Of a stretch of DNA of 32,000 nucleotides, positions 4,655 through 20,061 are shown one piece after another (positions within the stretch are counted from its first letter, which is position 1; each line of letters starts with the position of its first letter). Source of the stretch: Bdellovibrionales bacterium. GTDB lineage: Bacteria > Bdellovibrionota > Bdellovibrionia > Bdellovibrionales > UBA1609. The stretch covers positions 330,001 to 362,000 of the forward strand of contig OY843585.1 in assembly GCA_963692945.1 (NCBI GenBank), given 5' to 3'. Made by a program: the position numbers and the translations under genes. The notes beneath the pieces were generated by a model, which was not told the DNA's origin, searched no databases, and saw nothing but the letters and a program-made list of their open reading frames with translations.

Positions 4655-4667
4655 TAACATGTCTCCT

Positions 4668-5843: not shown

Positions 5844-7318
5844 TTTTTACCTCTGTCTGTGCAATAAGATTTAATAAGAGTTGTCATATGCTCAAAAATA
5901 TTTTTATGTTTTCCATTAGCACTTGATAGTGTTCGTTTAGAACGAGAATCGCTAGAAGAACTGGCACTGCCAGATGTCTTTTTACCACTTCCCTTTCCTA
6001 AAGGGTCGTTTTCATGGTTGCTTGCTTCTCCCCCACCAGAGCGAACTCCTCCTGCAAAACTACCAAAACCTCTTCCATAAGAGCTTCTAGAAGATCTTGC
6101 TCCTTTTCCTAATCCCTCTTCATCATCGTCTGTATTTCCTGCTAAAGAACTTCCTGGTGCCAAAGGAGGAGAACCGGTTGGAGTTTTTGAATCTTTTTTA
6201 TCATTAGCTTCTGCTTCTGCTGTAGAGTCTTCTGTTCCACTTGATGGTGGGAGTTCATTACCAGGGTCTGGTGGTGTTTCTCCAGCACTGGGGTCGTCTA
6301 TGTTTGCAGTTAGACAATTACTTCCAGTACATGTTGATGGGTTTTCACCAAGGTCAAAAGTTGAACCACTACCTGGGACGGTAGGTCTATTAGGTGGTGG
6401 TGGAGTTTTATCTTTTTTGCCGTCGTTATCTTTTAAATGGTCAGCAATTGTATAATTTATAGCTGCATGTAAAAGATTCTCTAGACCTTGACCCATGGCA
6501 GCTGCTGCTTTTTCTCTTTCTTTTGAACATTTGGTTTTAAATTCTTCAGCACTTGTAATTTCTGATGAACATAACTTTTCAATGGCTTCATCTTTATTTT
6601 CAACTTCTTTTGTAATTTCTGATGATGTACAGGATTCTAAGGCTTGTTTTATTTCTTTATCTATTTCTTCTATATTTTGTACTAATCCTACAAAGTTTGT
6701 TTTTTTTGTTATCTTATCTATACAAGTTTCACAGGCTTTAATTTTTTCTGTACAGGCACTTTCACACTTACGAATGTCAGTGTAACACATACCTGATACA
6801 GCAGCATTTACACCAGCTAAACCAAGATTCAGATTACCTATTTTCTCAGTTACTTGTCCTCCATTACTTGGTTTATTAGCTGCTACAACAGCTCCGTACA
6901 TTGTTCCACCTCTTCCAAGGTATGTGGATGCTGTAGTCAACTTTCTTGCTGTACAAGTGTCTTCCACTTTCCCCGGAGCATCAGCATTACATTCTATTGG
7001 GTCACCATCACCTTCTCCTGCTTCAGCTTTATTAAATGGAGAGTAGGCCGTTAAAGGATTAGGACCAGTGTGCTGCCTCTTAGCACTATTAGGTACTTCT
7101 GTCTTAACAGAAGAGGAAGTTTGATAATAATTACAAAATTTATTTTCCTCACCACAGGCTTTCATTCTTTTTTGTTCTATTTGGAATGCTTTGACTGCAT
7201 CAACATTTTCAGATGAAGCTTGATGAGAGTTAAAAAGAAAGTTAGGATTAAACATAAACATAAACATAAACATAAACGATTTTAATAATTTAAAAATTAT
7301 TGATAAAAGATTTTTCAT
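5834..7318 (-). CDS. Secreted Cys-rich / low-complexity protein A, first gene of the cluster (494 aa)
   Basis: ATG preceded by AAGGATGGG. Hydrophobic N-terminus with an (FM)4 repeat, a Cys-rich central helical region (CESACTEKIKACETCIDK...), and a Pro/Gly/Ser-rich C-terminal half ending in NIFEHMTTLIKSYCTDRGKNCQ. Confidence 0.75.
   Translation of the reverse strand: MKNLLSIIFKLLKSFMFMFMFMFNPNFLFNSHQASSENVDAVKAFQIEQKRMKACGEENKFCNYYQTSSSVKTEVPNSAKRQHTGPNPLTAYSPFNKAEAGEGDGDPIECNADAPGKVEDTCTARKLTTASTYLGRGGTMYGAVVAANKPSNGGQVTEKIGNLNLGLAGVNAAVSGMCYTDIRKCESACTEKIKACETCIDKITKKTNFVGLVQNIEEIDKEIKQALESCTSSEITKEVENKDEAIEKLCSSEITSAEEFKTKCSKEREKAAAAMGQGLENLLHAAINYTIADHLKDNDGKKDKTPPPPNRPTVPGSGSTFDLGENPSTCTGSNCLTANIDDPSAGETPPDPGNELPPSSGTEDSTAEAEANDKKDSKTPTGSPPLAPGSSLAGNTDDDEEGLGKGARSSRSSYGRGFGSFAGGVRSGGGEASNHENDPLGKGSGKKTSGSASSSSDSRSKRTLSSANGKHKNIFEHMTTLIKSYCTDRGKNCQ
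7250..7278. repeat. Hexanucleotide repeat (AAACAT)4 plus a partial unit, encoding FMFMFMFMF in the signal peptide of protein A
   Basis: Direct read: aaacat x4 at 7250-7273, followed by aaacg. Confidence 0.95.
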
Positions 7319-7382: not shown

Positions 7383-7511
7383 ATTTCCCTATAAAACTTA
7401 TCGGAAATATAAGATTTATAAAAAAGTCGTTCTTTTATTTTAAGAGAAAAATCTTTTTCAGCCTAAATTTTTCATTTTTTTAGCTAAAAAGTGTCTCATT
7501 TTAATACATTT

Positions 7512-7816
7512 TAACAAAACTCTCGTTCAAAAAAGTATTTTCTACTCTTATTTTAACGAGCTTTTCATCACAAGAGGGGACACTCTTTTACAAAACTCTA
7601 GTGTTACCTTTCTTATTTTCTGACCTTTCATCGTAAAAGGGGACACTCTTCAAGCTCAAAAAGTAAAAAAGGTATTCCTAGAGAAAAACTTCTGTTTTTC
7701 GCACTTTTGTTTTTCGCATCACCGGTTTTCTGAGTTTTCATCGTAAGAGGGACACTCTTCAAATCTCGTTAAACTAAGAGTTACTTAATAGGCTTATATT
7801 TGAACTAGAGTTTTGT
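7512..7816. repeat. Cluster R1 of modular hairpin (MITE/REP-like) elements, three cores
   Basis: Termini are TAACAAAACTCTCGTTC (7512-) and TGAACTAGAGTTTTG (-7815), with an internal CAAAACTCTAG at 7591. Core copies TTTCATC(G/A)(T/C)AA.AGGG(G)ACACTCTT at 7563-7589, 7626-7653 and 7736-7762. Also holds the GGTATTCCTAGAGAAAAACTTCTGTTTTTCGCA module seen in R4 and R5. Confidence 0.85.
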
Positions 7817-7922
7817 AAAAACGACAGTATCCGAATTTACAAATAAAAAATGAAAAAAAGCCCTGCTTCTTGATAGTTTATTCATACTCTCTTTTTGCTT
7901 TATATAGATATTGAGAAAAACA

Positions 7923-8966
7923 ATGTCTAAAAAAGCTAAGCAAGTTTTAAATCTTAAAAATCAAACCTTAGAATTTAAAAAAGGAATTCATAAGAAAAAC
8001 ACAGCTTTTAGTCATGATAAGTTTTTTAAACTCTTCTATTCTAATCCTGACTTAGCTACAGAACTCTTTGAACTCATCTTTTCAAAAAAAGAAATGAAAG
8101 CTTATGATTGGAAAAAACTAAAAATAGAAAAAGATAGTTTTGAAGATAAAAGAGCTGATCTTATTTTCTCTGTTCCTTTTAAAAAAATTCCTAAAATGAA
8201 ACTCACCCTCTTTATTCTTCTAGAACATAAGTCCTATTATGATAAAAACCTCTTCCATCAACTTTTAGATTATCAAGTGTTAATTCACCGACATAATAAA
8301 GACCATCTTGGTTATTTACAACCTATAATTCCTGTTTTGTTTTATCATGGGAAACAAACTATGAAGTGGAAATCTTCTTTTTTAGAAGAGAATTTTAGAG
8401 ATTCTCTTTTTAAAATTCCTTTAGAAACAAGAAAAAACATGTTAAACTACAAGTTGAAAGTAATAGATGTGAATGCTCCAAGAGTCCAAAGAGCTGGTAA
8501 GGATAAAAGGTTTAAGGGGCGAGGGGCGTTGAGTTTATTGAGGGAAATATGGAGTTTAAAGAACCCAACAGATTCTAAGTTGCGTGAGATTGTTTTAGAT
8601 TTTAAGGAGTTGTTTAAAAGTATAGAAGGTCAACGAAAAGCGGATGTTTTGTTAGGAATTACTGAGTATCTGAAACAGAACACGGGGTTGAGTGCAAAGA
8701 ATTGGAAGAAGATTGAGGATTTGATGGTAAAAGAGGGATTTTTAAAAAGAGGAGGAACTATGATAAATATGAGAAAGATTATAAGAGAACGAGCTCTGGA
8801 AGAAGGACTGGAAGAAGGACAACGAAAAGGACGACAAGAGGGGCGACAAGAGTTTAAAAAAGTTATTTTGAATATGTTGAAGAAAAAACTTGATATCTCT
8901 TTGATTTCGGAAGTGACAGGTTTGTCTAAAGCAGAGATTAAAAAACTAAAAAACAGTCATAAGTGA
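7923..8966 (+). CDS. Rpn/YhgA-like recombination-promoting nuclease (PD-(D/E)XK, 'transposase_31' family), full-length form
   Basis: N-terminal HDKFFKLFYSNPDLATELFELIF, then RADLIFSV...LTLFILLEHKSYYDKNLFHQLLDY (a D...E-x-K nuclease motif in the YhgA-like arrangement), and a C-terminal VILNMLKKKLDISLISEVTGLSKAEIKKL helix-turn-helix-like tail. The ORF track starts at TTG 7911; the first ATG is at 7923. Confidence 0.8.
   Translation: MSKKAKQVLNLKNQTLEFKKGIHKKNTAFSHDKFFKLFYSNPDLATELFELIFSKKEMKAYDWKKLKIEKDSFEDKRADLIFSVPFKKIPKMKLTLFILLEHKSYYDKNLFHQLLDYQVLIHRHNKDHLGYLQPIIPVLFYHGKQTMKWKSSFLEENFRDSLFKIPLETRKNMLNYKLKVIDVNAPRVQRAGKDKRFKGRGALSLLREIWSLKNPTDSKLREIVLDFKELFKSIEGQRKADVLLGITEYLKQNTGLSAKNWKKIEDLMVKEGFLKRGGTMINMRKIIRERALEEGLEEGQRKGRQEGRQEFKKVILNMLKKKLDISLISEVTGLSKAEIKKLKNSHK
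8749..8762 (+). promoter_or_regulatory. Internal ribosome-binding site plus in-frame ATG inside the rpn-like gene
   Basis: AGAGGAGGAACT-ATG, with GGAGG at 8751-8755 and the ATG at 8760 in frame (residue 284). A second in-frame ATG lies at 8769. The same SD+ATG block heads the two downstream cassettes. Confidence 0.6.
8760..8966 (+). CDS. Candidate internally initiated C-terminal small protein (RpnS-like, 68 aa) nested in the rpn-like gene
   Basis: In-frame ATG with a strong SD. The product is MINMRKIIRERA + 19-aa linker (LEEGLEEGQRKGRQEGRQE) + conserved tail. The same architecture occurs as separate genes at 9013 and 9327. Confidence 0.5.
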   Translation: MINMRKIIRERALEEGLEEGQRKGRQEGRQEFKKVILNMLKKKLDISLISEVTGLSKAEIKKLKNSHK

Positions 8967-9012
8967 TTTTTTAAATGTCTTTAAAGAGGGGCTTTTAAAA
9001 AGAGGAGGAACT

Positions 9013-9261
9013 ATGATAAATATGAGAGAGATTGTAAGAGAACGAGCTCGGGAAGAAGGACGACAGGAAGAACGAAAAAAATGGTTTAAAAACGGACAAA
9101 CTAGGGGACGACAAGAAGGGTTTAAAAAAGGACGACGAGAGGGACGACGAGAAAAACGACAAGAGTTTAAAGAAGTTATTTTGAATATGTTGAAGAAAAA
9201 ACTTGATATCTCTTTGATTTCGGAAGTGACAGGTTTGTCTAAAGCAGAGATTAAAAAATAG
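9013..9261 (+). CDS. Free-standing RpnS-like C-terminal cassette, copy 2 (82 aa)
   Basis: Same AAAAGAGGAGGAACTATGATAAATATGAGA head as at 8745-8774. The 39-aa linker has 4-residue periodicity (REEG RQEE RKKW FKNG QTRG RQEG FKKG RREG RREK RQE). The 84-nt tail (9175-9258) is identical to 8862-8945. Confidence 0.6.
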   Translation: MINMREIVRERAREEGRQEERKKWFKNGQTRGRQEGFKKGRREGRREKRQEFKEVILNMLKKKLDISLISEVTGLSKAEIKK

Positions 9262-9326
9262 TCATAAGTGATTTTTTAAATGTCTTCAAAGAGGGATTTT
9301 TAAAAAGAGGAGGAACTATAATAAAT

Positions 9327-9662
9327 ATGAAAAAGATTATAAAAGAACAAGCTATGGATAAAGAGTTTCAAGAAACTCTTAAAAAAGGGTTTCAAACTTG
9401 GATAAAAGAGCGTCAAAAAGGGTTTGAAGAAGCACAACGAGAATGGTTTCCAGAAGAGTCTGAAAAAGGGTTTAAAAAAGGGTTTAAAAAAGGACGACAA
9501 GAAGGACAACAAAAAGGACGACAAGAAGGACAACAAAAGTTTCAAAAAGTTATTTTGAATATGTTGAAGAAAAAACTTGATATCTCTTTGATTTCGGAAG
9601 TGACAGGTTTGTCTAAAGCAGAGATTAAAAAACTAAAAAATAGTCATAGAACAAAACTCTAA
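9327..9662 (+). CDS. Free-standing RpnS-like C-terminal cassette, copy 3 (111 aa)
   Basis: Same head, but the first ATG is mutated to ATA, so the start is the second ATG. 62-aa linker and an identical 84-nt tail (9549-9632). The last codons ACA AAA CTC TAA lie in the terminus of repeat cluster R2. Confidence 0.6.
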   Translation: MKKIIKEQAMDKEFQETLKKGFQTWIKERQKGFEEAQREWFPEESEKGFKKGFKKGRQEGQQKGRQEGQQKFQKVILNMLKKKLDISLISEVTGLSKAEIKKLKNSHRTKL

Positions 9663-9742
9663 TTTTACTTTTTGAGCTTGAAGAGTGTCCCCTTTTACGA
9701 TGAAAAGCTCGTTAAAGTAAAAGTTCACACACGAGAGTTTTG
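9651..9742. repeat. Cluster R2: single hairpin element
   Basis: ACAAAACTCTAA...TTTTACTTTTTGAGC-[TTGAAGAGTGTCCCCTTTTACGATGAAA, 9678-9705]-GCTCGTTAAAGTAAAAGTTCACACACGAGAGTTTTG. The arms are self-complementary. Confidence 0.85.
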
Positions 9743-9783
9743 AAAAAGTTGACTTTTTCAAGAAAATTTTGCATTTTAACTTA

Positions 9784-10485
9784 ATGCCTATTGTTCTTAT
9801 TTTTCTTTGTTTTTTTTGTATGTTTGGCTGTGTGAATGCTGAAAAAACACAAGCTAGATTTACAGCAAAAAAATATTATGAGATATCTCTCCAATATAAA
9901 AAAGAAGGAAAGTTATCTAAAGCTCTTAAAACTTTAGAAGAACTTAAAAAACATTTTTCCTATGATTCTTACAGCTTGTCAGCCTCTTTACTTATAGCAG
10001 ATATTCATTTTGAAAGAAGAGACTATGTTCTTGCAGCTGGTCTCTACACACAATTTCAAAAAATTTATCCAAAAACGAAAAGTCAATATGTTCACTATCA
10101 GCTAGGACGTTCTTATTTTTATCAACTTCCTAAGTCTGCTGATAAAGATTTATCTGTAGGAGAGTTGGCTTTACAAAACTTTCAACCTCTTTTACGAAAA
10201 TCCTCTCCTTACAAAAAAGAAGCTAAAAAATATGTGAAAAAAATTCAGACTCTAAAATCTAAAAAAGATTTTCTAGCGGCTCTTTTTTATTCAAAGAAAA
10301 AATGGAATCCATCGGCTTGGAAGCGATTGCAAATTCTTATAAAAGAGTATCCTGAAAGTCCTTTTGTCCCAGAGGCTCTTTTGCTTAGCTATAAACTGGC
10401 TAAAAAAATGAATAAAAATCCTAGCTCTTTTAAAAACCGTTTACTCAAAGAATTTCCAAAATCTGAACAAGCAAAATCCTTATGA
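9784..10485 (+). CDS. bamD: Outer membrane protein assembly factor BamD-like TPR lipoprotein
   Basis: Signal peptide with lipobox (CMFGC). The TPR-like pattern and the ...YPKTKSQYVHYQLGRSYFYQ..., ...SSPYKKEAKKYVKKI..., ...EYPESPFVPEALLL... segments match the BamD/ComL layout. The ORF track starts at TTG 9769; the first ATG is at 9784. Confidence 0.65.
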   Translation: MPIVLIFLCFFCMFGCVNAEKTQARFTAKKYYEISLQYKKEGKLSKALKTLEELKKHFSYDSYSLSASLLIADIHFERRDYVLAAGLYTQFQKIYPKTKSQYVHYQLGRSYFYQLPKSADKDLSVGELALQNFQPLLRKSSPYKKEAKKYVKKIQTLKSKKDFLAALFYSKKKWNPSAWKRLQILIKEYPESPFVPEALLLSYKLAKKMNKNPSSFKNRLLKEFPKSEQAKSL

Positions 10486-10991
10486 AATCATCAACTGTTT
10501 TTTTAGCAGAGAAAGAGATTCAAAAGTTAGTTAAGGGCTTAGCTAAAGAAATCAATCATGAATATAAAGATATAAAAGAAGCCCTTGTTTTGATTTGTCC
10601 TCTTAAAGGGTCTTTGTTTTTTTTGGCTGACCTCATTCGCCATTTAGAAATACCTGTTGTTTTAGATTTTATTTCTATAGAGACAAGGCAAAAAGGAAAC
10701 TTTCATATTTTAAAAGACATAAAAGTTCCTATTAAAAATAAAAATGTTCTTATTATTAAGGAGATTTTAAATGCAGGGAGAAAATTACTTTTTCTCAAAA
10801 AAAGAATTGAAGCGAGTTCTCCTCAAAGTGTGAAAATAGCAACTCTTATTGATAAACCTTCTCAAAGACAGTTGAATTTACAATCTGATTTTTTTGGACT
10901 TTCTACAGATGATCGTTACATTTTTGGTTATGGCTTAGACCATGAAGAAAAATATAGAAATCTTAGAAGTTTTCATCTTTTCACTCAATAA
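10482..10991 (+). CDS. hpt: Hypoxanthine phosphoribosyltransferase family protein with an atypical PRPP-binding motif
   Basis: LKGSLFFLADLIR, ILKDIKVPIKNKNVLII, IATLIDKPSQRQ and YIFGYGLDHEEKYRNL align with HPRT. The motif normally read as VLIVEDI(I/V)D(S/T)G is VLIIKEILNAG here. The start overlaps the bamD stop (ATGA). Confidence 0.75.
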   Translation: MKSSTVFLAEKEIQKLVKGLAKEINHEYKDIKEALVLICPLKGSLFFLADLIRHLEIPVVLDFISIETRQKGNFHILKDIKVPIKNKNVLIIKEILNAGRKLLFLKKRIEASSPQSVKIATLIDKPSQRQLNLQSDFFGLSTDDRYIFGYGLDHEEKYRNLRSFHLFTQ

Positions 10992-11088
10992 CAAAACTCT
11001 AGTTCTTCCTTTTTATTTTTAATATTTCTTTATAAAACGAGTATAGTTTTTGTATATAGTTTATGGTAAACTAAAAGAAGGAGAAATA

Positions 11089-11826
11089 ATGAGTAATAAA
11101 TCTACTGTTTTGGAGGCTAAAGCTTATTTTGCAGAAATTCGGAAACTCTTCAAAGAACGAAAAGAGTGCGATAAAGAAATGGCAGAGGAGCGAAGAAAAG
11201 AACGAGAAGAGCGAAAAAAAGAACGAAAAGAGTACGATAAAAAAATGGCAGAAGAGCGAAGAAAAGAACTAGAAAAAGAGCGAGAAGAGTACGATGAAAA
11301 AGCAGCAGAAGATATTAAAGAACTCCGAGCTAGCCAAAAAGCAACTGCCAAACAAATAAAAGAGACGGATCTAAAATTCAATGATTACTGGGATAATTGG
11401 GATAATTGGGATAACTGGGATAACTTGATGGAATCTTTATATAAACGAGATTTAGTGAAACTTCTAAAACAAAAAGGTATCAAAGTTGATCTGACTGCAA
11501 CAAATATAGTGAAAAAACATGGGGAACCACAATTTGAATTTGATATTTTAGCTTCCAATGGGGAGGAGCTCGTTGTTGTAGAAGTGACAACAACTTTGTA
11601 TATTAAAGAGTTGAATTATTTCATTAAGAAATTAAATAGAGTTACGGATTTTATGCCAGAATTTAAAGGTAAGAAAGTTTATGGAGCCGTTGCGTATTTA
11701 AAAGCCAATAAATCTTCTGACAAAAGAGCTGAGAAAGAGGGTTTGTTTGTGATAAGAGCGACAGAAAGCAGTTCCAATATTGTTAATAAGCAGGATTTTA
11801 AACCCAAATCTTTTTCAAAACTCTAG
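11089..11826 (+). CDS. DUF3782-like protein: N-terminal coiled coil + C-terminal PD-(D/E)XK-type domain, copy 1
   Basis: AAGGAG lies 6 nt before the ATG at 11089 (the ORF track's TTG 11050 extension is unlikely). FEFDILASNGEELVVVEVTTTL is a D...E-V-(K/T) motif, read as EVK in copy 2. The layout (coiled coil, then the short nuclease-like domain, ...KVYGAVAYL...GLFVI) matches DUF3782-type proteins as I remember them. The last codons TCA AAA CTC TAG lie in the element terminus. Confidence 0.55.
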   Translation: MSNKSTVLEAKAYFAEIRKLFKERKECDKEMAEERRKEREERKKERKEYDKKMAEERRKELEKEREEYDEKAAEDIKELRASQKATAKQIKETDLKFNDYWDNWDNWDNWDNLMESLYKRDLVKLLKQKGIKVDLTATNIVKKHGEPQFEFDILASNGEELVVVEVTTTLYIKELNYFIKKLNRVTDFMPEFKGKKVYGAVAYLKANKSSDKRAEKEGLFVIRATESSSNIVNKQDFKPKSFSKL

Positions 11827-12093
11827 TTCAGTTCTACTAATACCCTTTTCTTTTTAGGAGATTTTCGTCGTAGGAGCTCCTCAAACACCTAAAAAGAAAA
11901 GGGCTCTTACTTATTGTTTGAACTAGAGAAAACCTACTGGTTTTCGCATTTTACTTATAATAAATTTGCGAAAAACATCAGTGCGAAAAACGAAGGTTTT
12001 CTCTAGGAATACCTTTCTTATTTTCTGAACTTGAAGAGTGTCCCTCTTACGATGAAAGGTCAGAAAATAAGAAAGGGTAACACGAGAGTTTTG
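11816..12093. repeat. Cluster R4 of modular hairpin elements, two cores
   Basis: Unit 11816-11928 runs CAAAACTCTAGTTCA...CCCTTTTCTTTTTAGGAG-[core variant 11863-11885]-CCTAAAAAGAAAAGGG...TGAACTAGAG. Unit 12001-12093 runs CTCTAGGAATACCTTTCTTATTTTCTGA-[core 12031-12057]-TCAGAAAATAAGAAAGGGTAACACGAGAGTTTTG. Between them lies a GTTTTCGCA...TGCGAAAAC hairpin and the CGAAAAAC module. Confidence 0.85.
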
Positions 12094-13152
12094 TTAAATA
12101 TTGTCTGTCACATGTTGATAAACAGTCATTATAGTAACCTTAAGAGCACTCACTAAAGGAATGCTAATAATCATTCCTAAAACACCCATAAACTGAGCTC
12201 CTGCAATAATAATCACAATCACAGTTAAAGGGTGAAGATCTACAATGCGAGCAAGAAGAATAGGAACTAAAACTATGGAATCAATAAATTGAGTGAAATA
12301 AAAAATACCTAACACAATAAGAATCTGGCTGGCTTCATAATCATTCACAAGAGCCACTAGAAAAATAACAATACTAGCGACAATGGGACCTACATAAGGA
12401 ACAAGATTAGCTAAAGCCGCAAAACCTGCAAGCAAAATAGCAAAAGGGAATTTGAAAAAAAACAAAGTGACTCCCACAATGATTCCTACAATAAGAGCTT
12501 CCAATAGACGACCTCTGATAAAGACACCAATTTGTTGATTGATTTTATAATGCAGACCTAGAAACATTTCAAAAAGCTGATTGGGAACAAGAGGGTATAA
12601 ATACCTTGTCAGCCCCCACTCATTTCTGACCATAAAAAAAGCAAAGAAAGGAGCTAGAAGTAAAATGGTAAAAGATTGGGCTAAAGTTGAAGGAAGGTCT
12701 TGTAAAAAAGCAGTTCCTAAAGATTGTAAAAAACTTTCTAAATTAGAAGACAAATCAAAACTTCTCATAAAAAACAAATGAGTTTCTAAACCCTCTTGCC
12801 AAGTTTTTATAAGGACAGTTGTTTTTTGAACATAATTTGGAAACTCCGTTTTTAAATTTAAGAATTGTTGAGATAAAAAGGGAAACATCCAGGCAATCAA
12901 ACCGGAAAGAGCCCCTATCGTGCTAACAAAAACAATGGATGCCGATAAAAGTCTTGGCAATCCCCACTTACAAAGAAGATTCACAAGGGGCAAAAGAATA
13001 AAACTTATCACAAAAGCAAGAAGTAAAGTTATAAAAAGCCCTTTGATAATGAAAAGAGCCGAGAGGAGAAAACTAAAAATAAGTAAGAAAAAAGAGATTC
13101 TAAAAAAATTTAACCGACGGATTCGTTTTTTTGTATCTAATAAAGGAATCAT
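12094..13152 (-). CDS. AI-2E family transporter (PerM/YhhT-like permease)
   Basis: Multi-pass membrane protein of ~350 aa with the characteristic ...LANLVPYVGPIVASIVIFLVAL... segment. Its stop codon directly abuts the R4 terminus. Confidence 0.75.
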   Translation of the reverse strand: MIPLLDTKKRIRRLNFFRISFFLLIFSFLLSALFIIKGLFITLLLAFVISFILLPLVNLLCKWGLPRLLSASIVFVSTIGALSGLIAWMFPFLSQQFLNLKTEFPNYVQKTTVLIKTWQEGLETHLFFMRSFDLSSNLESFLQSLGTAFLQDLPSTLAQSFTILLLAPFFAFFMVRNEWGLTRYLYPLVPNQLFEMFLGLHYKINQQIGVFIRGRLLEALIVGIIVGVTLFFFKFPFAILLAGFAALANLVPYVGPIVASIVIFLVALVNDYEASQILIVLGIFYFTQFIDSIVLVPILLARIVDLHPLTVIVIIIAGAQFMGVLGMIISIPLVSALKVTIMTVYQHVTDNI

Positions 13153-13652
13153 TTTGTGGAATGCACCTGAAGTATTTTTTGCTCTGCTTTTTTCAACCTA
13201 TGACTTAAAATAAGACAAAGTTGGTTTAAAATTTTTATACCCGTTAAAGGTCGTCTCTTTAAAATGAGATTCAAATCAGGTTTATAAAAAGCTAAAAGTT
13301 GAGAGTTTGTAGCGGATTGTGCAAACATGGTTTGATAAGCTTCATTTTGTAAGAGAGCAAGTTCTGCAAAAAAATCTCCCACCTTCAAGGAGGAAACAAG
13401 GGAGGGGTCTTCTTGGGAATCAGGTGATCCATGAAGAATATTCACTTGTCCTTTTAAAATAATATACATTCCATTTCCAGAAGAGGGTTTAAAAATAATT
13501 TCTCCTGTCGTATAAATTCTTTTATGAAAAATCTTTTGTATAAAGTGGAGTTCTTTATTGGTTAGATTAGAAAAGAGAGGGCAATCTTTAATGTATTTTA
13601 ATTCCCCATGCTTTTTTTTATTAAAAAAATTATTCCAAAAGATTTCTAACAT
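13149..13652 (-). CDS. Cyclic-nucleotide-binding domain protein (stand-alone CAP effector-type domain)
   Basis: FSNLTNKELHFIQKIFHKRIYTTGEIIFKPSSGNGMYIILKGQVNI...VGDFFAELALL... is the cNMP-binding fold signature, and no DNA-binding HTH follows. The preferred start is the ATG at 13652 (GGAG 5 nt upstream, 2 nt after the upstream stop) rather than 13694. Its stop overlaps the transporter start (ATGA). Confidence 0.7.
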   Translation of the reverse strand: MLEIFWNNFFNKKKHGELKYIKDCPLFSNLTNKELHFIQKIFHKRIYTTGEIIFKPSSGNGMYIILKGQVNILHGSPDSQEDPSLVSSLKVGDFFAELALLQNEAYQTMFAQSATNSQLLAFYKPDLNLILKRRPLTGIKILNQLCLILSHRLKKAEQKILQVHSTK

Positions 13653-13654
13653 TT

Positions 13655-14293
13655 TTACTCCAAAGTTTGAATAAGGTTTTCTTTTAAAAGCCAACCTTTT
13701 TTATGTTGAGAGGTTTTAACTTGTCCCCACTTACCCCGTTGTTTTAAAAAAACCAAATCAGATCCTTTTCTAATCGTTTCTACAGAAAGAGCTTTCTCAA
13801 AAGGAGAGTTTAAAAGTTCTAGCTCCTTTAAATTAGAAACTCTTTTTTTAAGGTTAAAAAAACCACTTAAAAAGACAATCGTCAAGCCACAAAACCAGAG
13901 AGCGATCATTTTAAAGTTTCTTTTAAAAAGGAAAGCTTGTTTTAGGGAAAAAACCAGACAAATTAAGGATAAAAGGGCAAAAAGCAAGCTTCCTATTTGC
14001 CAGATAAAAGGGGCTAAAGAGACCTCCTCTTTTAAAGTTTTTAAAGTCAGATAGGAAGGGAAGAAAAGAGATTGATAAAAATTTTTCCGAAATAAAATGA
14101 CGGCAGAAGTTTTATCTTCTGATTTAAGCTTTTGTAAAGCTTTATTGTGTAAGTCAACAGGGGATAAGGGTGGTTGATTTTCAAAAAGAGATTCCAAATC
14201 AGCGGATTTAGAGTCAGAGAAACCCGAAGCAGAAAGTCCATTAGAAAAACCGAAAGACAAATAGATATAAAAAAACATTCTCAAAAGAAGCAT
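13655..14293 (-). CDS. Hypothetical membrane protein with signal peptide, two or three TM segments and an SH3b-like C-terminus
   Basis: N-terminal MLLLRMFFYIYLSFGFSNGLSA, hydrophobic stretches (IWQIGSLLFALLSLICLVF, MIALWFCGLTIVFLSGFF), and a C-terminal GKWGQVKTSQHKKGWLLKENL that resembles bacterial SH3 motifs. Confidence 0.5.
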   Translation of the reverse strand: MLLLRMFFYIYLSFGFSNGLSASGFSDSKSADLESLFENQPPLSPVDLHNKALQKLKSEDKTSAVILFRKNFYQSLFFPSYLTLKTLKEEVSLAPFIWQIGSLLFALLSLICLVFSLKQAFLFKRNFKMIALWFCGLTIVFLSGFFNLKKRVSNLKELELLNSPFEKALSVETIRKGSDLVFLKQRGKWGQVKTSQHKKGWLLKENLIQTLE

Positions 14294-14316
14294 ACTTGGA
14301 CTATAATAGGATAATT

Positions 14317-15657
14317 ATGAAAAATGTTAAACCCTACAATTCATTATTAACTTCTTTTTTAAAAGAAATAGAAAAACAAAGTCTTTTTTTGAATAAGCCC
14401 AGAGATTCGGATCCCTCCAAACGAGAAAGTTACTACAAAAATCTTGAGCAAATCGCTCATTTAAGAGGACGCCCTGCTTATTATCCTTATATCAGTTCTG
14501 GTGTAGGTCATGGGGCTTTGGTTCAACTTCTTGATGGAAGTGTTAAGTTGGATTTTATTTGTGGGATTGGACCTCATATTTTAGGTCATTCTCATCCAGA
14601 GATTTTAAAAGCCTCTCTTCGTGGAGCTTTAGAAGATACAACCATGCAAGGTCATCTTCAGTTTAGTTCCATTTATAAAGAGTTTTTGGAAAAACTTCTA
14701 TTTTTAGCTCGTAGGAAGTCCCGATTGAGACAGGCTTGGTTATGTCCTTCAGGTTCTATGGCTAATGAGAATGCTTTAAAAGTGATTCGTCAAAAAAAAG
14801 AAGGAGCAAAAACGATCCTCGCTTTTGAAAGGGCTTTTGCGGGTCGGACAACTCTTATGGCAGAAATCACAGACAATCCAAGTATTAAACAGGGCTTGCC
14901 TTCTTACGATGAAGTGTTAAGAGTTCCCTTTTCTCCTGAAGATCCAGAAAAATCTTTAGAGGTGTTAAAAAAACATTGGAACCAAAAGGGAAAGGACATA
15001 GCTTGTTTTATGGTAGAGCTTATGCAAGGGGATGGAGGTTGTTATAGAGCTTCTAGAGATTTTTTTGTTCCGCTGTTTGAATTTTGTAGAGAAAAACAGA
15101 TAGCGATTTGGTTGGATGAAGTTCAAACTTTTGCAAGAAGTGGAGAGTTTTTTGGTTTTGAAAAATTAAATCTTGGAGAGTATGTGGATGTTTGCACTAT
15201 AGGTAAGGCCTTGCAATTATCGGCTTCGTTATGGACTAAGGAATACAACCCTAAGCCGGGACTGGTTTCAGGAACTTTTTCATCTAGCTCTACAAGTTTG
15301 CACAGTGGGCTAGAGGTTCTAAAAATTTTAGATGAAAAAAATTATATGGGGGAACAGGGAAGAATTTCTCAAATTTATGAACAATGGGTTTCTCGACTGA
15401 AAGTTTTAGAACAGGAGAATTTAGTGTCAGAAATAGAAGGTTGGGGCTTGATGATAGGAGTGACTCCTTTAGATGGAAATCCAGAAATGGTGAAAAAATT
15501 ATTACAGGTTTTATTTCAAAAAGGATTGATGTGTTATTCTTGTGGTTCTGATTTGAAAAAAAGACTTAGGTTTCTTTTGCCAGCTGTTGTTCAAAATGAA
15601 AATTTAGATCAAGCTTTAGAAATACTGAGAGAAGCTCTTTTAGAACTGAAAAAATAG
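14317..15657 (+). CDS. Class III (PLP-dependent) aminotransferase
   Basis: GIGPHILGHSHPEI, PSGSMANENALK, WLDEVQTFARSGEFFGFE and TIGKALQ (putative PLP lysine) follow the class III order. The substrate cannot be assigned. The ORF track starts at TTG 14296; the first ATG is at 14317. Confidence 0.75.
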   Translation: MKNVKPYNSLLTSFLKEIEKQSLFLNKPRDSDPSKRESYYKNLEQIAHLRGRPAYYPYISSGVGHGALVQLLDGSVKLDFICGIGPHILGHSHPEILKASLRGALEDTTMQGHLQFSSIYKEFLEKLLFLARRKSRLRQAWLCPSGSMANENALKVIRQKKEGAKTILAFERAFAGRTTLMAEITDNPSIKQGLPSYDEVLRVPFSPEDPEKSLEVLKKHWNQKGKDIACFMVELMQGDGGCYRASRDFFVPLFEFCREKQIAIWLDEVQTFARSGEFFGFEKLNLGEYVDVCTIGKALQLSASLWTKEYNPKPGLVSGTFSSSSTSLHSGLEVLKILDEKNYMGEQGRISQIYEQWVSRLKVLEQENLVSEIEGWGLMIGVTPLDGNPEMVKKLLQVLFQKGLMCYSCGSDLKKRLRFLLPAVVQNENLDQALEILREALLELKK

Positions 15658-15710
15658 AAAGTTCAATTTGAAGGAATGTTTTGAGAGTTTTTATTAGAGG
15701 GATTCAATTT

Positions 15711-16706
15711 ATGAAATTAAAAGTGTTTTTTTTAATCAGTCTTTGTCTTGCAGGTTTATTTGTTTATACTTTTTTTACTCCCATTCATTTCAAGGGTCAA
15801 AGTGTTATTTTAGATGTTTCACCCGGAAAAACTTTTTACCAATTGGCTGAGGAGTTGGAAGAAAAAAATCTTATTAGAGAGTCCTTTTATTTTAAATTAT
15901 TGATTCGTCTGTTTGGTTCTCCTATTTTACAGGTGGGGGAATACCGTCTTTCTCAAGGAGAATCTCTTTGGACACAGTTTCAAAAAATCAGAAATGGAGA
16001 TATTCATTATGTTTTTTTAACTTTTAAAGAGGGGTTGAATCATTATGAAATGGGACAAATACTTAAAAATTATGGTTGGAAGGAGTATGAAAATTTTTTA
16101 AATCTAATAGAGGATAAATCTTTTATTAAAAGTCTTTTAAAAGAAGACCTTTCTTCTTTGGAAGGATATTTATTTCCAGACACCTATGATTTAAGCAAGT
16201 ATATGACAGCAGAAATTCTTATAACTAGAATGGTTAAAAATTTTTTAAAGAACTATGAAAAGATTGTAAAAACACCAACTTCTTTTTCTCGTCATGAAAT
16301 TGTAACTTTTGCAAGTTTGATTGAAAAAGAAACAGGAGTCCCTCAAGAGCGTTCCATTATTTCTTCAGTCTTTTACAATCGTCTTAAGAAAAAGATGAGA
16401 CTTCAAACAGACCCCACTATTTTGTATAGTCTTTATTTGAAAAAGGGGTTTTCTATAGAAAAAAATATTCGTAAAAAAGATATTCTTATGCCCTCCCCTT
16501 ACAACACTTATGTGATTTATGGACTTCCTAAGGGACCTATTGCTAATCCAGGAAGGGCAAGTTTGCAAGCGGTTTTAAAACCAGCTTCAACGGATTATTT
16601 TTATTTTGTAAGTCGTAATGATGGAACTCATGTTTTTTCTAAAACTTATGAAGAGCATAAAAAATATGTTTATAAATATCAAATAAAGCCTTTTCAAAAA
16701 CTCTAG
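15711..16706 (+). CDS. mltG: Endolytic murein transglycosylase MltG (YceG-like)
   Basis: N-terminal TM helix, GEYRLSQGES, ASLIEKETGVPQERSIISSVFYNRLKKKMRLQTDPTILY, YNTYVIYGLPKGPIANPGRASLQAVLKP and YFYFVSRNDGTHVFSKTYEEH. The ATG at 15711 follows GAGGG. The last codons CAA AAA CTC TAG lie in the R5 terminus. Confidence 0.85.
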   Translation: MKLKVFFLISLCLAGLFVYTFFTPIHFKGQSVILDVSPGKTFYQLAEELEEKNLIRESFYFKLLIRLFGSPILQVGEYRLSQGESLWTQFQKIRNGDIHYVFLTFKEGLNHYEMGQILKNYGWKEYENFLNLIEDKSFIKSLLKEDLSSLEGYLFPDTYDLSKYMTAEILITRMVKNFLKNYEKIVKTPTSFSRHEIVTFASLIEKETGVPQERSIISSVFYNRLKKKMRLQTDPTILYSLYLKKGFSIEKNIRKKDILMPSPYNTYVIYGLPKGPIANPGRASLQAVLKPASTDYFYFVSRNDGTHVFSKTYEEHKKYVYKYQIKPFQKL

Positions 16707-17022
16707 TGTGTGAACTTTCATTTTCACGAGCTTTTCATCACAGGAGAGATGTTCTTCAAATCTCGTTAAAATGAAAGTTTTAACATAGAGAAAAACTTCT
16801 GTTTTTCGCAACTCTGGTTTTTGTATAGAAAAAACTTCGTTTTTTGCAGGGTTGTTTTTCGCACTTGAGCTTTCAGATTCAAAACTTTTTTAAAAACCAG
16901 TAGGTTTTCTCTCGTTCATTATAAGTAAGAATCTTTTTCTTTTTAGGAGTTTGAGGAGTGTCCCCTTTTACGACGAAAACCTCCTAAAAAGAAAAAGATA
17001 TTAGAACTGAACGAGAGTTTTG
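16695..17022. repeat. Cluster R5 of modular hairpin elements, two cores
   Basis: Unit 16695-16790 runs CAAAAACTCTAGTGTGTGAACTTTCATTTTCACGAG-[degenerate core 16733-16759]-ATCTCGTTAAAATGAAAGTTTTAACATAGAG. Next come the GAGAAAAACTTCTGTTTTTCGCA modules. The last unit runs CTCTCGTTCATT...CTTTTTCTTTTTAGGAG-[core 16951-16978]-CTCCTAAAAAGAAAAAGATATTAGAACTGAACGAGAGTTTTG. Confidence 0.85.
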
Positions 17023-17094
17023 TTAAATATTTTTTTATAAAACTTGGCATGGTTTTTGCATATAACTTATGGTAAACTAAAAAAAGGAGAAATA

Positions 17095-17715
17095 ATGAGT
17101 AATAAATCTACTGTTTTAGAGGCTAAAGCTTATTTTGCAGAAATTTGGAAACTTTTCAACGAGCAAAAAGAGTACGATAAACAAACGGCAATGGAGCGAA
17201 AAGAATATGAAAAAAAAGCAGCAGAAGATATTAAAGAGCTCCGAGCTCTCCAAAAAGCAACTGCCAAACAGCTAAAAGAGACTGATCTAAAATTCAATGG
17301 TCACTGGGGTAAGTTGATGGAGACTTTAGTTGAAGGAGATTTAGTGAAACTTCTAAAACAAAAAGGTATCCAAGTTGATCGGACGGCAACAAATATACTG
17401 AAAAAACACGGGGAACAACAATTTGAATTTGATATTTTAGCTTTCAATGGGGAAGAGATCGTTGTTGTAGAAGTGAAAACAACTTTAGATATTAAAGAGT
17501 TGAATTATTTTATTAAGAAATTAAATAGAGTTACGGATTTTATGCCAGAATTTAAAGGTAAGAAAGTTTATGGAGCCGTTGCGTATTTAAAAGCCAATCA
17601 ATCTTCTGACAAAAGAGCTGAGAAAGAGGGTTTGTTTGTGATCAGAGCGACAGGAAGCAGTTCCAGTATTATTAATAAGCAGGGGTTTAAACCCAAATTT
17701 TTTCAAAAACTCTAG
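17095..17715 (+). CDS. DUF3782-like coiled-coil + PD-(D/E)XK-type protein, copy 2
   Basis: Paralog of 11089-11826 with the same SD/ATG context. FEFDILAFNGEEIVVVEVKTTL gives an intact D...E-V-K. About ten mismatches over the last ~185 nt compared with copy 1 (by eye). Lacks the in-frame expansions of copy 1. Confidence 0.55.
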   Translation: MSNKSTVLEAKAYFAEIWKLFNEQKEYDKQTAMERKEYEKKAAEDIKELRALQKATAKQLKETDLKFNGHWGKLMETLVEGDLVKLLKQKGIQVDRTATNILKKHGEQQFEFDILAFNGEEIVVVEVKTTLDIKELNYFIKKLNRVTDFMPEFKGKKVYGAVAYLKANQSSDKRAEKEGLFVIRATGSSSSIINKQGFKPKFFQKL

Positions 17716-17876
17716 TTCTTCCCCTCCTTGTTTTCTGACCTTTCATCGTAAGAGGGACACTCTTCAAATCTCGTGAAAATAAAAATTCACACACTAGAGT
17801 TTTGTAAAAGAGTGTCCCCTTTTACGACGAAAATCTCCTAAAAAGAAAAAGATATTAGAACTGAACGAGAGTTTTG
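17704..17876. repeat. Cluster R6 of modular hairpin elements, two cores in opposite orientation
   Basis: CAAAAACTCTAGTTC..., core at 17741-17767, ATCTCGTGAAAATAAAAATTCACACACTAGAGTTTTG, inverted core at 17807-17833, then CTCCTAAAAAGAAAAAGATATTAGAACTGAACGAGAGTTTTG. It ends 1 nt from the stop of the 17878-20061 gene. Confidence 0.85.
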
Positions 17877-17877
17877 T

Positions 17878-20061
17878 TTAAGGACAATACTCCGACAAAT
17901 TATCAGGCTGAGGGTCTAAAGTGCTGACCAAATCGCAAGAAATTGTTTTTATAGAGTAACCACTTCTCCCTCCTCTTTCACAACCACTTGGTATGGGTTT
18001 CAGTTGTCTTCTAGAGCTATGGCTCGTGTGGGAATAGCATTTAGCAAACATTCGTTCTGGAAAACTATAGCTTTCATATCTGTCTAATTGTGTAGTTGGA
18101 GCCCAAGAGGTTAAAAAATGAGAAGGGTCTTTAACAAGATAAGGATAGCGAATGTTCTTATTGGAGTAAGCCATTGTTAGAGGGGATCGATTTATATCCA
18201 CTGGATTGCTGTTTTTGGCATAAAAGAAAGGGACAAAAGAGTTTGCAATTTTTGTTGTTGCTAAATTGAGTTCCAAATAATCTTTACTATAGGGGTAACC
18301 AAAATCTCCACGAATGTATCCTGGATATTCTCCAGAACGAGCAATCTTTTCTCTTATAAGAGGATCACAGATTTTTTTATTCTCACCAATCAATTTACAA
18401 ATTTTTGGGAAATAGACTTCCATATAATTATTGGAAATAGAGTAATGGGTGATATCAAATACATCTGGAAACACAGCCATCAGCTCCATCAATCTTACAA
18501 GGCCGAAAGCAGGGTCATTGCCGTCTGCAACAGCTAAAGGGTCTGGTGCCTTGCCAGTATTTAAATGGTCAAAAAAGGAAATATCAAACGGTGTTCTTAT
18601 AGAGGCAACAGCATCTGTTATTTGATGAATGTCACCATTATGACGAAGTAAAGCCGTTTTTATTAAAAAAGCTTTATGTGTGCCGTCTTTATGAAGTGTT
18701 TTATCAATAAGTCCCCATTCGTCTCCTGGGTAGCGAGAGTAATTGGGTTGCAAATTGTAAATTTGTAGTTGTGTTCTATTTGCGTCTGTAGCAGTCCCCA
18801 AGTCAATTTGATGTTTTAAAAGCAAGTCTTCATCTTTACCTGGTCCAATTCTCCCTCCAAAAGGTTTGGCAAAGGAGCTAGCCCTTAAAGGAGGAAGTTT
18901 TGTGTTCTCTAGTGGTGTAAAAAGTGGAGGGACTCCTCTGTAAGAAAAGCTTGCTTTCATTCCATAGTAAAGTATTAGGTTATCCTTTTTTTTATAGCCA
19001 AGGCTGAGCTTACCAAGATCGGGTTCAGGCGCTGGCCCGGTATTGAAATAAAAAAGATTTTTATGTGCATTAACAAAGGATTGAATAGTAGTGTTACTAG
19101 AAAAAGCATCTCTAGAGTCTATACCACCATCAATCAAATTTTGAATTTTTCCTCCACAACTGGCTTCAAATTTCATAAATTGCAATATGGGAAAAATATG
19201 TAAGGGTTCTAAAAACTCTGAGAAGTCTCTCTCTTTTAAAGAGTTATAAAATGTAGGGGGATTATAATTTTTTTTATTGGTGTAGTTTAAATTTTTACGA
19301 AATACTTTTTCAGCTCCTTTAGAAATGCTATAACCATCTAAGTCTTTTCCCACCTTTAAAGTTTTATTATAGAGGGTTTCTATCATGATCTTTCTATCTT
19401 TTTGGTCTAAGCGAAAGTGACTTAAAATCAAATTAGTCATCAACCAAGAAAGACCAGATTCTGAATTACAGATACCTTCAATAGCTCTTGCTGCGGCTTC
19501 TGTTTGAGCAGCAGCAGAGGCGTTCCAAGGTAAAAAACTAGCAGTGGGAGGATAGGTTGGAATCCTAGGGATTGAAACTTCATTATTTTTGCAATAGGAA
19601 TCACTACTATGACCATTCTGACCAACTCCTCTATTCCAGATAGCAGCATTGATACAAACGGAAAATGCTATATCACAATAGTTTCCATAAATACTATCAC
19701 TACAATTGTCAGGAGGTTCGGCTTTACATTCAATGCTTACCCCAGCACTGCCTGGACACCAGGCATTAGGGTCGGGAGAATGTCCTTCATATTTTTGTGC
19801 CATACCCCCTAAAATTCTATATCTCCAAGCCAGAAGCTTATAGTTTTGTCTCATTTGATAATTGATATGGGCAATGGCATTTAAAACCTCAGCTTGTTTT
19901 TTCGCTCCATATAGAGTTGCTAAGTCCAAAGAATTTTGCAGATTGATTTTGTCATGAACCACCAAAGCGACATTCAGAGTCATAGCAAATAAAATAAATA
20001 AAATTTGAAAGATAAAAACAAAAAAAATGGCCATTTGACCTTTAGAGTTTTTTAAAACCAT
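17878..20061 (-). CDS. Large TadG-like protein (Tad_N/TadE-G-like N-terminal domain), 727 aa
   Basis: The N-terminus SKGQMAIFFVFIFQILFILFAMTLNVALVVHDKINLQNSLDLATLYGA fits the pseudopilin-like TadE/G N-terminal pattern (G-x-x-A/V..hydrophobic helix..L-Q-N-x-x-D-x-A-x-L-x-G-A). The rest is Cys-containing with no family I recognise. Confidence 0.5.
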   Translation of the reverse strand: MVLKNSKGQMAIFFVFIFQILFILFAMTLNVALVVHDKINLQNSLDLATLYGAKKQAEVLNAIAHINYQMRQNYKLLAWRYRILGGMAQKYEGHSPDPNAWCPGSAGVSIECKAEPPDNCSDSIYGNYCDIAFSVCINAAIWNRGVGQNGHSSDSYCKNNEVSIPRIPTYPPTASFLPWNASAAAQTEAAARAIEGICNSESGLSWLMTNLILSHFRLDQKDRKIMIETLYNKTLKVGKDLDGYSISKGAEKVFRKNLNYTNKKNYNPPTFYNSLKERDFSEFLEPLHIFPILQFMKFEASCGGKIQNLIDGGIDSRDAFSSNTTIQSFVNAHKNLFYFNTGPAPEPDLGKLSLGYKKKDNLILYYGMKASFSYRGVPPLFTPLENTKLPPLRASSFAKPFGGRIGPGKDEDLLLKHQIDLGTATDANRTQLQIYNLQPNYSRYPGDEWGLIDKTLHKDGTHKAFLIKTALLRHNGDIHQITDAVASIRTPFDISFFDHLNTGKAPDPLAVADGNDPAFGLVRLMELMAVFPDVFDITHYSISNNYMEVYFPKICKLIGENKKICDPLIREKIARSGEYPGYIRGDFGYPYSKDYLELNLATTKIANSFVPFFYAKNSNPVDINRSPLTMAYSNKNIRYPYLVKDPSHFLTSWAPTTQLDRYESYSFPERMFAKCYSHTSHSSRRQLKPIPSGCERGGRSGYSIKTISCDLVSTLDPQPDNLSEYCP

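Follow-up and report, generated by a model that had tools for sequence, protein, structure and literature searches.

Bacterial MITEs (miniature transposable elements with inverted repeats) that target TA, such as the Correia elements and RUP, are about 100-300 nt long, have terminal inverted repeats and hairpin potential, and insert near the ends of genes. Composites in which MITEs bound a segment and carry passenger genes have been documented (PMC4133298, PMC13367494, PMC3934969). Rpn proteins are reported to be toxin-antitoxin defence nucleases, which are neither conventional transposases nor autonomously mobile and which hitchhike on mobile elements; stand-alone RpnS genes, for the antitoxin, lie downstream of Rpn, as for E. 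coli rpnC and rpnE (PMC10400941). The stretch analysed here, the window, is 32,000 nt of contig OY843585.1 (positions 330,001 to 362,000) from a Bdellovibrionales bacterium (assembly GCA_963692945.1). It holds an Rpn locus and two paralogous genes, copy 1 and copy 2, for a coiled-coil protein with an Hjc-like PD-(D/E)XK nuclease domain, and these loci are adjoined by copies of a hairpin repeat.

The repeats are a previously undescribed family of non-coding, MITE-like elements, and their termini bound three lineage-specific insertion islands that are absent from relatives. We favour, with a probability of about 0.55, the reading that the islands are MITE-bounded composite cassettes, with defence- or toxin-like nuclease genes as their passengers and with the enzyme that moves them encoded outside the window.

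Three islands bounded by inverted termini

The repeats end in CAAAACTCT[A/C]G (the 11-mer CAAAACTCTAG). When up to one mismatch is allowed, the window contains this 11-mer 14 times (1.34 expected), with all but one of the matches, 13, lying within 7515-17876; a 24-nt core is found four times against an expectation of zero, with degenerate copies in addition. Self-comparison limits the element copies to 7510-7770, 9663-9748, 11816-12102, 16697-17031 and 17718-17878. Together with a terminus stub at 10992 they occupy six of the 22 intergenic regions of the window, exactly those that border the Rpn locus and the two paralogs, and no copy was found in the remaining 16.

Three relatives with conserved gene order, L080, L081 and L086, were found using the adjacent aminotransferase as a handle. 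Protein identity is 81, 78 and 72%, respectively, and nucleotide identity to the window is ~78-80% for L080 and L081 and ~70-75% for L086. The 11-mer, the core, the Hjc-like gene and the Rpn gene are all absent from these loci (21, 21 and 11 kb, respectively). Homology between the window and the relatives stops at ~7508 (L081 alignment) and resumes at 9748-11000, where it is inverted, at 12094, at 15703-16700 and at 17878. The breaks coincide with 11-mers at 7515, 9732-9742, 10992, 12083-12093, 16696 and 17866-17876, and the window therefore holds three insertions (Table 1). Every island opens with the 11-mer in one orientation and closes with it in the opposite one, and each contains one double-hairpin array of ~300 nt as well as further full or partial copies. 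While in L080 and L081 the Tad-like gene follows mltG after 48-58 nt, in the window the two are 1,172 nt apart.

An earlier interpretation, made from the letters of the window without database searches (the sequence-only reading), had described several of these features. Its termini are where it had put them, with CAAAACTCTAGTTC (14 nt) at 10992 and 11816 around copy 1, and GAGAGTTTTG at 17013-17022 and CAAAAACTCTAG at 17704 around copy 2, and the Rpn locus is bracketed by repeats at 7515-7815 and 9652-9742 as it had said. Its proposal that genes and repeats are linked in a non-random way agrees with the 11-mer counts and with the confinement of copies to the six flanking intergenic regions. 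Its suggestion that gene and hairpins form a mobile cassette is likewise upheld by the relatives that share the gene order and lack both genes and repeats, in which the genes do not sit at syntenic positions (L080, L081, L086), and by the boundaries on inverted 11-mers.

Table 1. Positions of the islands, repeat elements and genes within the window.
Feature	Position	Strand	Remarks
Island 1	7510-9747	.	Holds the Rpn gene between X1 and H1
Left repeat block of island 1	7515-7815	.	Truncated element 7515-7590, then array X1 7591-7815
Rpn (YhgA-like, Transposase_31) PD-(D/E)XK nuclease gene	7911-8966	+	Putative passenger of island 1
Tandem Rpn C-terminal segments	8694-9662	+	162-nt units at 8800, 9113 and 9487
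H1, short-form hairpin element (91 nt)	9652-9742	.	Right end of island 1; left breakpoint of inversion
bamD-hpt block	9748-10991	+	Ancestral, outside the islands; inverted relative to three relatives
Island 2	10992-12093	.	Holds copy 1 between terminus stub and X2
Solitary left terminus CAAAACTCTAGTTCTTCC and short A/T-rich tail	10992-11022	+	Left end of island 2
Copy 1, coiled-coil and Hjc-like PD-(D/E)XK gene	11089-11826	+	245 aa; stop codon inside 11-mer
X2, double-hairpin array	11816-12093	-	Hairpins 11843-11903 and 12012-12076; S palindrome 11923-12006; right end of island 2, adjoining the AI-2E transporter stop codon at 12094
X3, double-hairpin array	16695-17022	+	Hairpins 16713-16779 and 16931-16999; left end of island 3
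Island 3	16701-17877	.	Holds copy 2 between X3 and X4
Sigma-54-type promoter-like motif TGGCATGGTTTTTGCA	17045-17060	+	50 nt upstream of copy 2 start codon; pattern match only
Copy 2, coiled-coil and Hjc-like PD-(D/E)XK gene	17095-17715	+	206 aa; intact; stop codon inside 11-mer
X4, rearranged array	17704-17876	+	Closes island 3 on the right, a single base away from the Tad stop codon at 17878

A full element is ~280-330 nt long and is made up of a 12-nt terminus (ACAAAACTCT[A/C]G), a hairpin, a spacer module containing ...CTAGAGAAAAACTTCTGTTTTTCGCA..., a second hairpin and an inverted terminus. A conserved core of ~28 nt, TTGAAGAGTGTCCCCTTTTACGAYGAAA, lies in the loop of each hairpin, in opposite orientations in the two. 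The stems, of 17-21 bp, are of three sequence types, each of which is still complementary, with compensatory changes at nine of the 23 consensus stem pairs, and the single-stranded DNA folds of intact units have z-scores of -3.6 to -6.3 relative to shuffles. The hairpins are therefore real and maintained. The units are small and non-coding (91-327 nt, with no open reading frame of 50 aa or more), and the 11-12 nt terminus is inverted at the ends of H1, X1, X2, X3 and X4, forming terminal inverted repeats. A scan against Rfam gave only sub-threshold look-alikes of miRNA precursors, as generic hairpins do, and counts from promoter and terminator scans equalled the level in shuffles; the hairpins are not typical terminators.

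In alignment, the blocks of repeats at the three loci prove to be collinear homologs of one larger array, and about half of the copies are truncated or are chimeras joined at the core. H1 has inverted 11-mers at both ends and the core in its loop (fold of -14.5 kcal/mol, z = -3.6). In X1 the terminal 11-mer is followed by a chimeric hairpin with the core, the S module (7671-7718), a second core and an inverted 11-mer at 7805-7815. X2, with folds of z = -4.5 and -5.1, is collinear with X3, whose folds reach z = -4.9 and -6.3, and with X1. In X4 the order is 11-mer, core, inverted 11-mer (17794-17804), second core and inverted 11-mer (17866-17876), and a segment of it is 97% identical to 16956-17027.

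It could be argued that such islands accrete by coincidence, with few intergenic sites tolerating insertion and with MITEs and selfish or defence genes having arrived at them independently and repeatedly. The 3' ends of hpt, Tad and mltG and the bamD/AI-2E spacer are indeed points of insertion or rearrangement in relatives free of the element, L086 having a methyltransferase fragment between bamD and AI-2E and a different order of Tad and mltG; a 160-nt TA-flanked insertion at the stop codon of a family gene distinguishes L060 from L040; and the chimeric elements speak for frequent local recombination. We nevertheless consider this explanation unlikely and prefer composite cassettes, because the island ends are termini (one outward-facing pair in three of three islands), because the arrays are collinear homologs, which independent arrival does not predict, and because five paralogs share the same gene-terminus junction. 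The 16 other intergenic regions, none with a copy, also count against it.

Two further differences between the window and its relatives were observed at these loci. In L080 (11379-13870) and L081 (11396-13883) astA-like and aldehyde dehydrogenase genes lie between the aminotransferase and mltG, which in the window are separated by 23 nt (15658-15680) and have neither gene between them; this reflects either a deletion in the lineage of the window or a gain in the relatives. In L086 Tad is convergent with hpt, mltG is inverted, and the fragment of a DNA methyltransferase gene is found between bamD and AI-2E (5379-5432, 6755-6964). L086, which has no elements, has rearrangement points at the very junctions where the islands of the window lie.

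Junctions and proposed movement of the islands

Islands 1 and 2 are separated by the bamD-hpt block, which is inverted. By blastn, 9748-11000 of the window corresponds to 7774-6523 of L080 reversed, and L081 and L086 agree. The order is hpt(-)-bamD(-)-AI-2E(-) in all three relatives and bamD(+)-hpt(+) in the window, and since the three share the opposite order the inversion occurred in the lineage of the window. Its breakpoints are the H1 terminus at 9732-9742 and the terminus at 10992.

Several junctions fall on stop codons. In the relatives mltG ends ...TTTTCAAAAATAA (KPFQK*), while in the window it ends ...TTTTCAAAAACTCTAG (KPFQKL*), the first 11-mer of X3 supplying the stop codon. At hpt (CAA TA|ACAAAAC) and at the AI-2E transporter gene (GTTTTGT|TA AAT) the stop codons are formed across the junction. 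The terminus at 10992 directly abuts the hpt stop codon, and the same 18 nt open X4 at 17704. TA adjoins the 12-nt terminus at 7512-7513, 10989-10990 and 12095-12096; no pair of ends matches one empty-site TA, and a TA duplication is compatible with several ends.

In the composite cassettes that we favour, the outer inverted termini would be the joints used in insertion and the moving enzyme, absent from the window, would presumably be supplied in trans. Insertion would take place at TA. As the terminus starts with A (and ends with T), insertion into the TA of TAA would rebuild the stop codon, which may be why island ends lie exactly on stop codons and suggests how insertion into stop codons is tolerated. 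The dispersed inverted termini would then act as substrates for rearrangement, and would account for the bamD-hpt inversion, for gene and array being flipped relative to each other when islands 2 and 3 are compared, and for the chimeras joined at the core. The movement of composite units, the targeting of TA and the passenger status of the nucleases are what we infer from the arrangement.

A number of observations weigh against this reading. No clean target-site duplication was found at the islands, the left end of island 3 lacks a TA and has its junction in CAAAA microhomology with the ancestral mltG end, and a junction beside the inversion is irregular. Nor are islands 2 and 3 plain copies of a single composite: copy 1 has the array on its 3' side and copy 2 has it, inverted, on its 5' side, which is consistent with the gene segment having flipped between inverted termini. 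In the window no transposase was seen apart from Rpn, and none with matching termini. The element is carried by one genome only, so that its mobility rests on three sites, and every copy of the repeat in the 32 kb touches a nuclease gene, which is tighter than a model of passive passengers requires.

The same junctions could be taken as the product of site-specific recombination, in which an unseen recombinase would use CAAAACTCTAGTTC as an att-like site for crossover: integration would leave direct repeats around copy 1, and segments between inverted sites (bamD-hpt; copy 2 relative to its array) would flip. An exact direct repeat of 14 nt does bracket copy 1 (10992 and 11816), inverted sites bracket both the inverted bamD-hpt block and copy 2, and the mltG junction lies in CAAAA, common to target and element. 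Such a system seems highly improbable to us, however, as the window has no recombinase or integrase gene, the junctions do not by inspection fit the integron attC core GTTRRRY, and the 11-mers also end the short hairpin elements, as they would in ordinary elements with terminal inverted repeats; inversion between short inverted repeats, moreover, needs no dedicated system. Integron cassettes proper (attC) had been tried as a candidate and were rejected: the window lacks an integrase and, by inspection, a fit of the termini to RYYYAAC...GTTRRRY is seen at one junction only, by chance.

The nuclease genes and the distribution of the repeat

The two Hjc-like genes were placed correctly by the sequence-only reading at 11089-11826 and 17095-17715, and their neighbours are hpt (Pfam Pribosyltran) and mltG (Pfam YceG), as it had recognised. 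The duplicated unit starts at ~11023 and ~17024 and runs to CTCTAGTTC just beyond the stop codon (11829 and 17718); it is 92% identical over ungapped columns, and two in-frame indels in the Lys/Glu-rich N-terminal coiled coil separate the copies. The common upstream leader that had been noticed, from TTTATAAAAC through the Shine-Dalgarno sequence, is present in both, and in the last 185 nt nine positions differ where about ten mismatches had been estimated. To call the genes near-identical was too strong, the proteins being 70% identical overall with a ratio of non-synonymous to synonymous differences (pN/pS) of ~0.8 in the nuclease domain. The label DUF3782-like is not supported for either copy: DUF3782 (PF12644) gave no match to them at E <= 0.1 and only weak matches in eight of 37 relatives (best E 0.0028), and the Pfam match is instead to Hjc (PF01870), with 37.3 and 24.4 bits for the two paralogs against a gathering cut-off of 21.1.

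The nuclease fold that the sequence-only reading had proposed is borne out by this match and by prediction. The AlphaFold2 model of copy 2 (mean predicted local distance difference test score, pLDDT, of 84.6) has an N-terminal helix of 86 residues followed by an alpha/beta domain, and Foldseek matches the domain, at a probability of 1.0, to AF1548, to the nuclease domains of Can2/Card1 and to NucS/EndoMS in the PDB. PADLOC models for CARF_PDDEXK nucleases also match copy 2 (1.4e-8). In a sequence search of solved structures the N-terminal helix matched only designed coiled coils. An alignment of 37 relatives shows no variation at E111, D113 or E126 and almost none at K128; copy 2 keeps all four, and D113, E126 and K128 give it the catalytic D...(D/E)-x-K residues.

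In copy 1 the catalytic lysine is lost (K128T, EVK to EVT), as are three nearly invariant glycines (G72D, G81R, G187E), and there is an extra DNW x4 repeat with additional Lys/Glu-rich repeats. Because of these losses and the pN/pS of ~0.8 it looks like a decaying copy and, though it retains an open reading frame, is probably an inactive or decaying paralog. A further difference lies upstream. Motifs of the form TGGCA[CT]-N5-TTGCA, like that before copy 2, precede family genes by 57-76 nt, as pattern matches only, in L008, L017, L022, L027 and L028, loci that belong to three other Bdellovibrionales metagenome-assembled genomes (MAGs); the corresponding sequence of copy 1, GTATAGTTTTTGTATA, has lost the GG/GC consensus of the sigma-54-like promoter.

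Five paralogs are known from this genome, namely copy 1, copy 2 (P0001), P0002, P0003 and P0004. All five end ...KL*, and in both copies in the window this tail is encoded by the 11-mer, while homologs in other genomes end ...FS*. From this it follows that the junction of gene and terminus arose once and was thereafter copied with the gene. The nuclease domains of the paralogs in this genome are nearly identical, P0004 being the same as copy 2 from GHWGKL to the end, and the N-terminal helices (P0001-P0004, copies 1 and 2) vary in length and sequence; this mosaic pattern recalls the length-variable helix of the Rpn proteins.

The Rpn gene of island 1 matches PF04754 with 83.2 bits, TIGR01784 with 53.1 bits (cut-off 52.1) and a PHROG transposase family at 3e-28. 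A paralog in the same genome, P0241, on which PF27070 is recorded, is 95% identical, though the repeat region of the window gene, EEGLEEGQRKGRQEGRQ, is unlike that of P0241. Downstream, the open reading frame at 9327-9662 corresponds to an RpnS-like C-terminal domain standing alone; its variable 4-aa repeats (KKGF/QEGR type) are present in a different number, and its stop codon falls within the terminal 11-mer 9652-9662. The whole locus (7911-9662) sits between the two repeat blocks of island 1. The Rpn locus of another symbiont (L085, 3029-5032) also has tandem C-terminal copies, with a period of ~580 nt, and no hairpin elements of the type in the window were found at it.

The Hjc-like family is large. 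A word-indexed search returned 2,479 matches and an exhaustive one ~550 clusters at E <= 1e-30, and there are at least 569 family loci in GTDB representative genomes. The hosts are MAGs of Spirochaetia, Bdellovibrionales, Gammaproteobacteria, Thermoanaerobaculia, Nitrospirales, Bacteroidota and Thiosymbion with GC contents of 30-70%, and the protein is 45-58% identical across phyla. The genes are often in tandem, with up to eight copies in 8.5 kb. A defence or toxin role comparable to that of Rpn may be envisaged for the family. The islands thereby draw attention to a large uncharacterised nuclease family with tandem arrays and a length-variable N-terminal helix, found in marine host-associated bacteria of many phyla.

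The repeat has a different distribution. It is absent from the 79 family loci fetched for comparison, and the core pattern had no match in GTDB representative genomes and three in JGI metagenomes, all of which were judged to be chance matches, since their number is by our estimate about that expected by chance for such a pattern. Two of the three are the same coding stretch of tgt (LDECPPYDES) and were discarded, as was the third, a terminator-like hairpin between convergent genes on a contig of 63% GC. The window core at 12030-12058 and the tgt stretch (852-880 of L082, an unrelated metagenome contig) are identical at 27 of 29 positions. A phage or plasmid origin was rejected, relatives of the nuclease being absent from 2.9 million viral contigs and from the PLSDB plasmids and the array having no plasmid match.

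Next to family genes elsewhere, long hairpins are weakly enriched in the adjoining intergenic regions (0.59 against 0.31 per kb, p=0.05), 85% of these regions having none, and flanking inverted repeats are found family-wide in 15% against 5.7% in controls, an excess driven by tandem arrays. The heptamer GGGGACA/TGTCCCC, part of the window core, shows a 4-fold enrichment at distances of up to 300 nt from family genes (flank matches in L006, L012, L019/L021, L057 and L075); the signal comes mostly from duplicated spacers of one tandem array, L019, and is marginal once this is allowed for. In another Bdellovibrionales MAG (L040, 4649-4667) the stop codon of a family gene is followed by AAAAACTCTATCTTCTTC, two edits from CAAAAACTCTAGTTCTTCC of the window, and the near-identical L060 (4646-4826) has a 160-nt insertion flanked by TA exactly at the stop codon, with an altered C-terminus. 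As judged from these sequences, the 3' end of the Hjc-like gene may be a recurrent site of insertion.

These distributions bear on the proposal of the sequence-only reading that the PD-(D/E)XK proteins themselves spread the elements. An Hjc-like nuclease, or Rpn, would recognise the hairpin, cruciform or core, cut it, and so spread the elements or home its own gene, with the short elements as deletion derivatives of a nuclease-encoding parent; action of a nuclease on the hairpins, if it occurs, would amount to a mobile-element partnership of a new type. Consistent with it, all copies of the repeat in the window adjoin Hjc-like or Rpn genes, all five Hjc-like paralogs have their stop codon fused to the 11-mer, the fold is that of nucleases specific for junctions or structures (Hjc, NucS/EndoMS), the conserved loop with its covarying stems resembles a protein recognition site, two rearrangements have their breakpoints at termini, and hairpins are ~2-fold enriched beside family genes. 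Of the three outcomes that the sequence-only reading had set as refuting it, none came about in full. The repeat itself does not extend beyond one genome, while the family of proteins crosses phyla, most family-adjacent regions have no long hairpin, and the inverted repeats are enriched through tandem arrays only. We know of no PD-(D/E)XK enzyme that mobilises MITEs with terminal inverted repeats. Copy 1, furthermore, retains its flanks despite the lost catalytic lysine, and the Rpn relatives of L085 lack the elements. We accordingly find it quite improbable that the nucleases spread the elements, and regard them as cargo rather than as the mover, since islands of one type house two unrelated families, the repeat is found in one genome while the proteins are widespread, and Rpn proteins are reported to hitchhike and not to be transposases (PMC10400941).

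A bolder version would be a form of palindrome homing, in which the Hjc-like protein cuts extruded cruciforms or hairpins, its own gene is copied into repeat sites during repair, and the inversions at termini result. This we hold to be very improbable; if true, repeat and nuclease would constitute a two-part selfish system of an undescribed kind and could explain the multi-copy state of the family in repeat-rich symbiont genomes. A conventional homing endonuclease gene was also considered and rejected, the genes being intergenic between repeats and not inside a host gene, intron or intein.

The window has 33.7% GC and, for the rest, ordinary chromosomal gene content, and its closest relatives are MAGs labelled Bdellovibrionales or Oligoflexia. 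Profile scans identify bamD, hpt, an AI-2E-family transporter, a class-III aminotransferase, mltG and a Tad-like gene, and further genes are opp-type permeases, priA and rpsB-tsf-pyrH-frr. A gene for an AAA_14/DUF4143 ATPase (1134-2288), matched by the PADLOC candidate defence family PDC-S01 at 3e-65, is accessory, has a nuclease-like C-terminal domain and is not flanked by a hairpin element. Three tandem 137-nt repeats (4241-4679) lie between two paralogous genes on the minus strand (2856-4277 and 4668-5843), which have no assigned function (compare 2855-3012 with 4667-4824); each 137-nt unit includes a Shine-Dalgarno sequence and the start of a coding sequence and is unrelated to the hairpin elements.

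Comparison with known systems

The elements of the window share with Correia elements and RUP their size, terminal inverted repeats, hairpin potential, TA beside the termini and insertion near the ends of genes, with altered coding ends; no sequence similarity between them is known. With REP/BIME sequences and their RAYTs (REPINs) they have in common intergenic palindromic mosaic clusters, compensatory change in the hairpins and a proposed dedicated enzyme acting on folded DNA. RAYTs, however, are HUH/Y1 enzymes, whereas the adjacent genes in the window have the PD-(D/E)XK fold, and no RAYT (Y1/HUH) domain was found in the open reading frames scanned. REP elements also have a short stem with a GTAG head, in contrast to the true terminal inverted repeats and the 28-nt conserved loop seen here.

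Among nucleases, archaeal Hjc, NucS/EndoMS and the nuclease domains of Can2/Card1 are the best Pfam, PADLOC and fold matches to the Hjc-like family and share its PD-(D/E)XK core and D...E-x-K motif. The family differs from these nucleases in lacking a CARF or other sensor domain, the N-terminus being instead a long helix in which the number of repeats varies, and in being multi-copy, often in tandem, in marine host-associated MAGs; it is known from sequence and predicted structure. The gene at 7911-8966, for its part, resembles the Rpn toxin-antitoxin nucleases in passing the Pfam and TIGRFAM cut-offs, in its variable 4-aa repeats and in its downstream RpnS-like copies (PMC10400941), and is set apart by its place within a repeat-bounded island and by the tandem triplication of the C-terminal segment.

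The closest parallel for the islands is with MITE-bounded composites, that is, integron mobilization units, TIME-COMPs and the MITE-flanked integrons of Acinetobacter, and with mobile insertion cassettes (PMC4133298, PMC13367494, PMC3934969, PMC5444012). In these, too, short non-coding elements with terminal inverted repeats flank passengers that are not transposases, the outer repeats are the ends of the segment and no transposase lies inside the unit. The elements of the window differ in being double hairpins whose loops carry a conserved core, no clean target duplication was found for them, and the passengers would be nuclease genes in a symbiont chromosome rather than resistance genes on plasmids. 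The islands would thus be a new family of a known kind, MITE-bounded composites with passengers, and would offer a cleanly delimited case, its empty sites visible in sister genomes, in which accessory nuclease genes came into a small symbiont chromosome, and rearranged it, by way of hairpin repeats.

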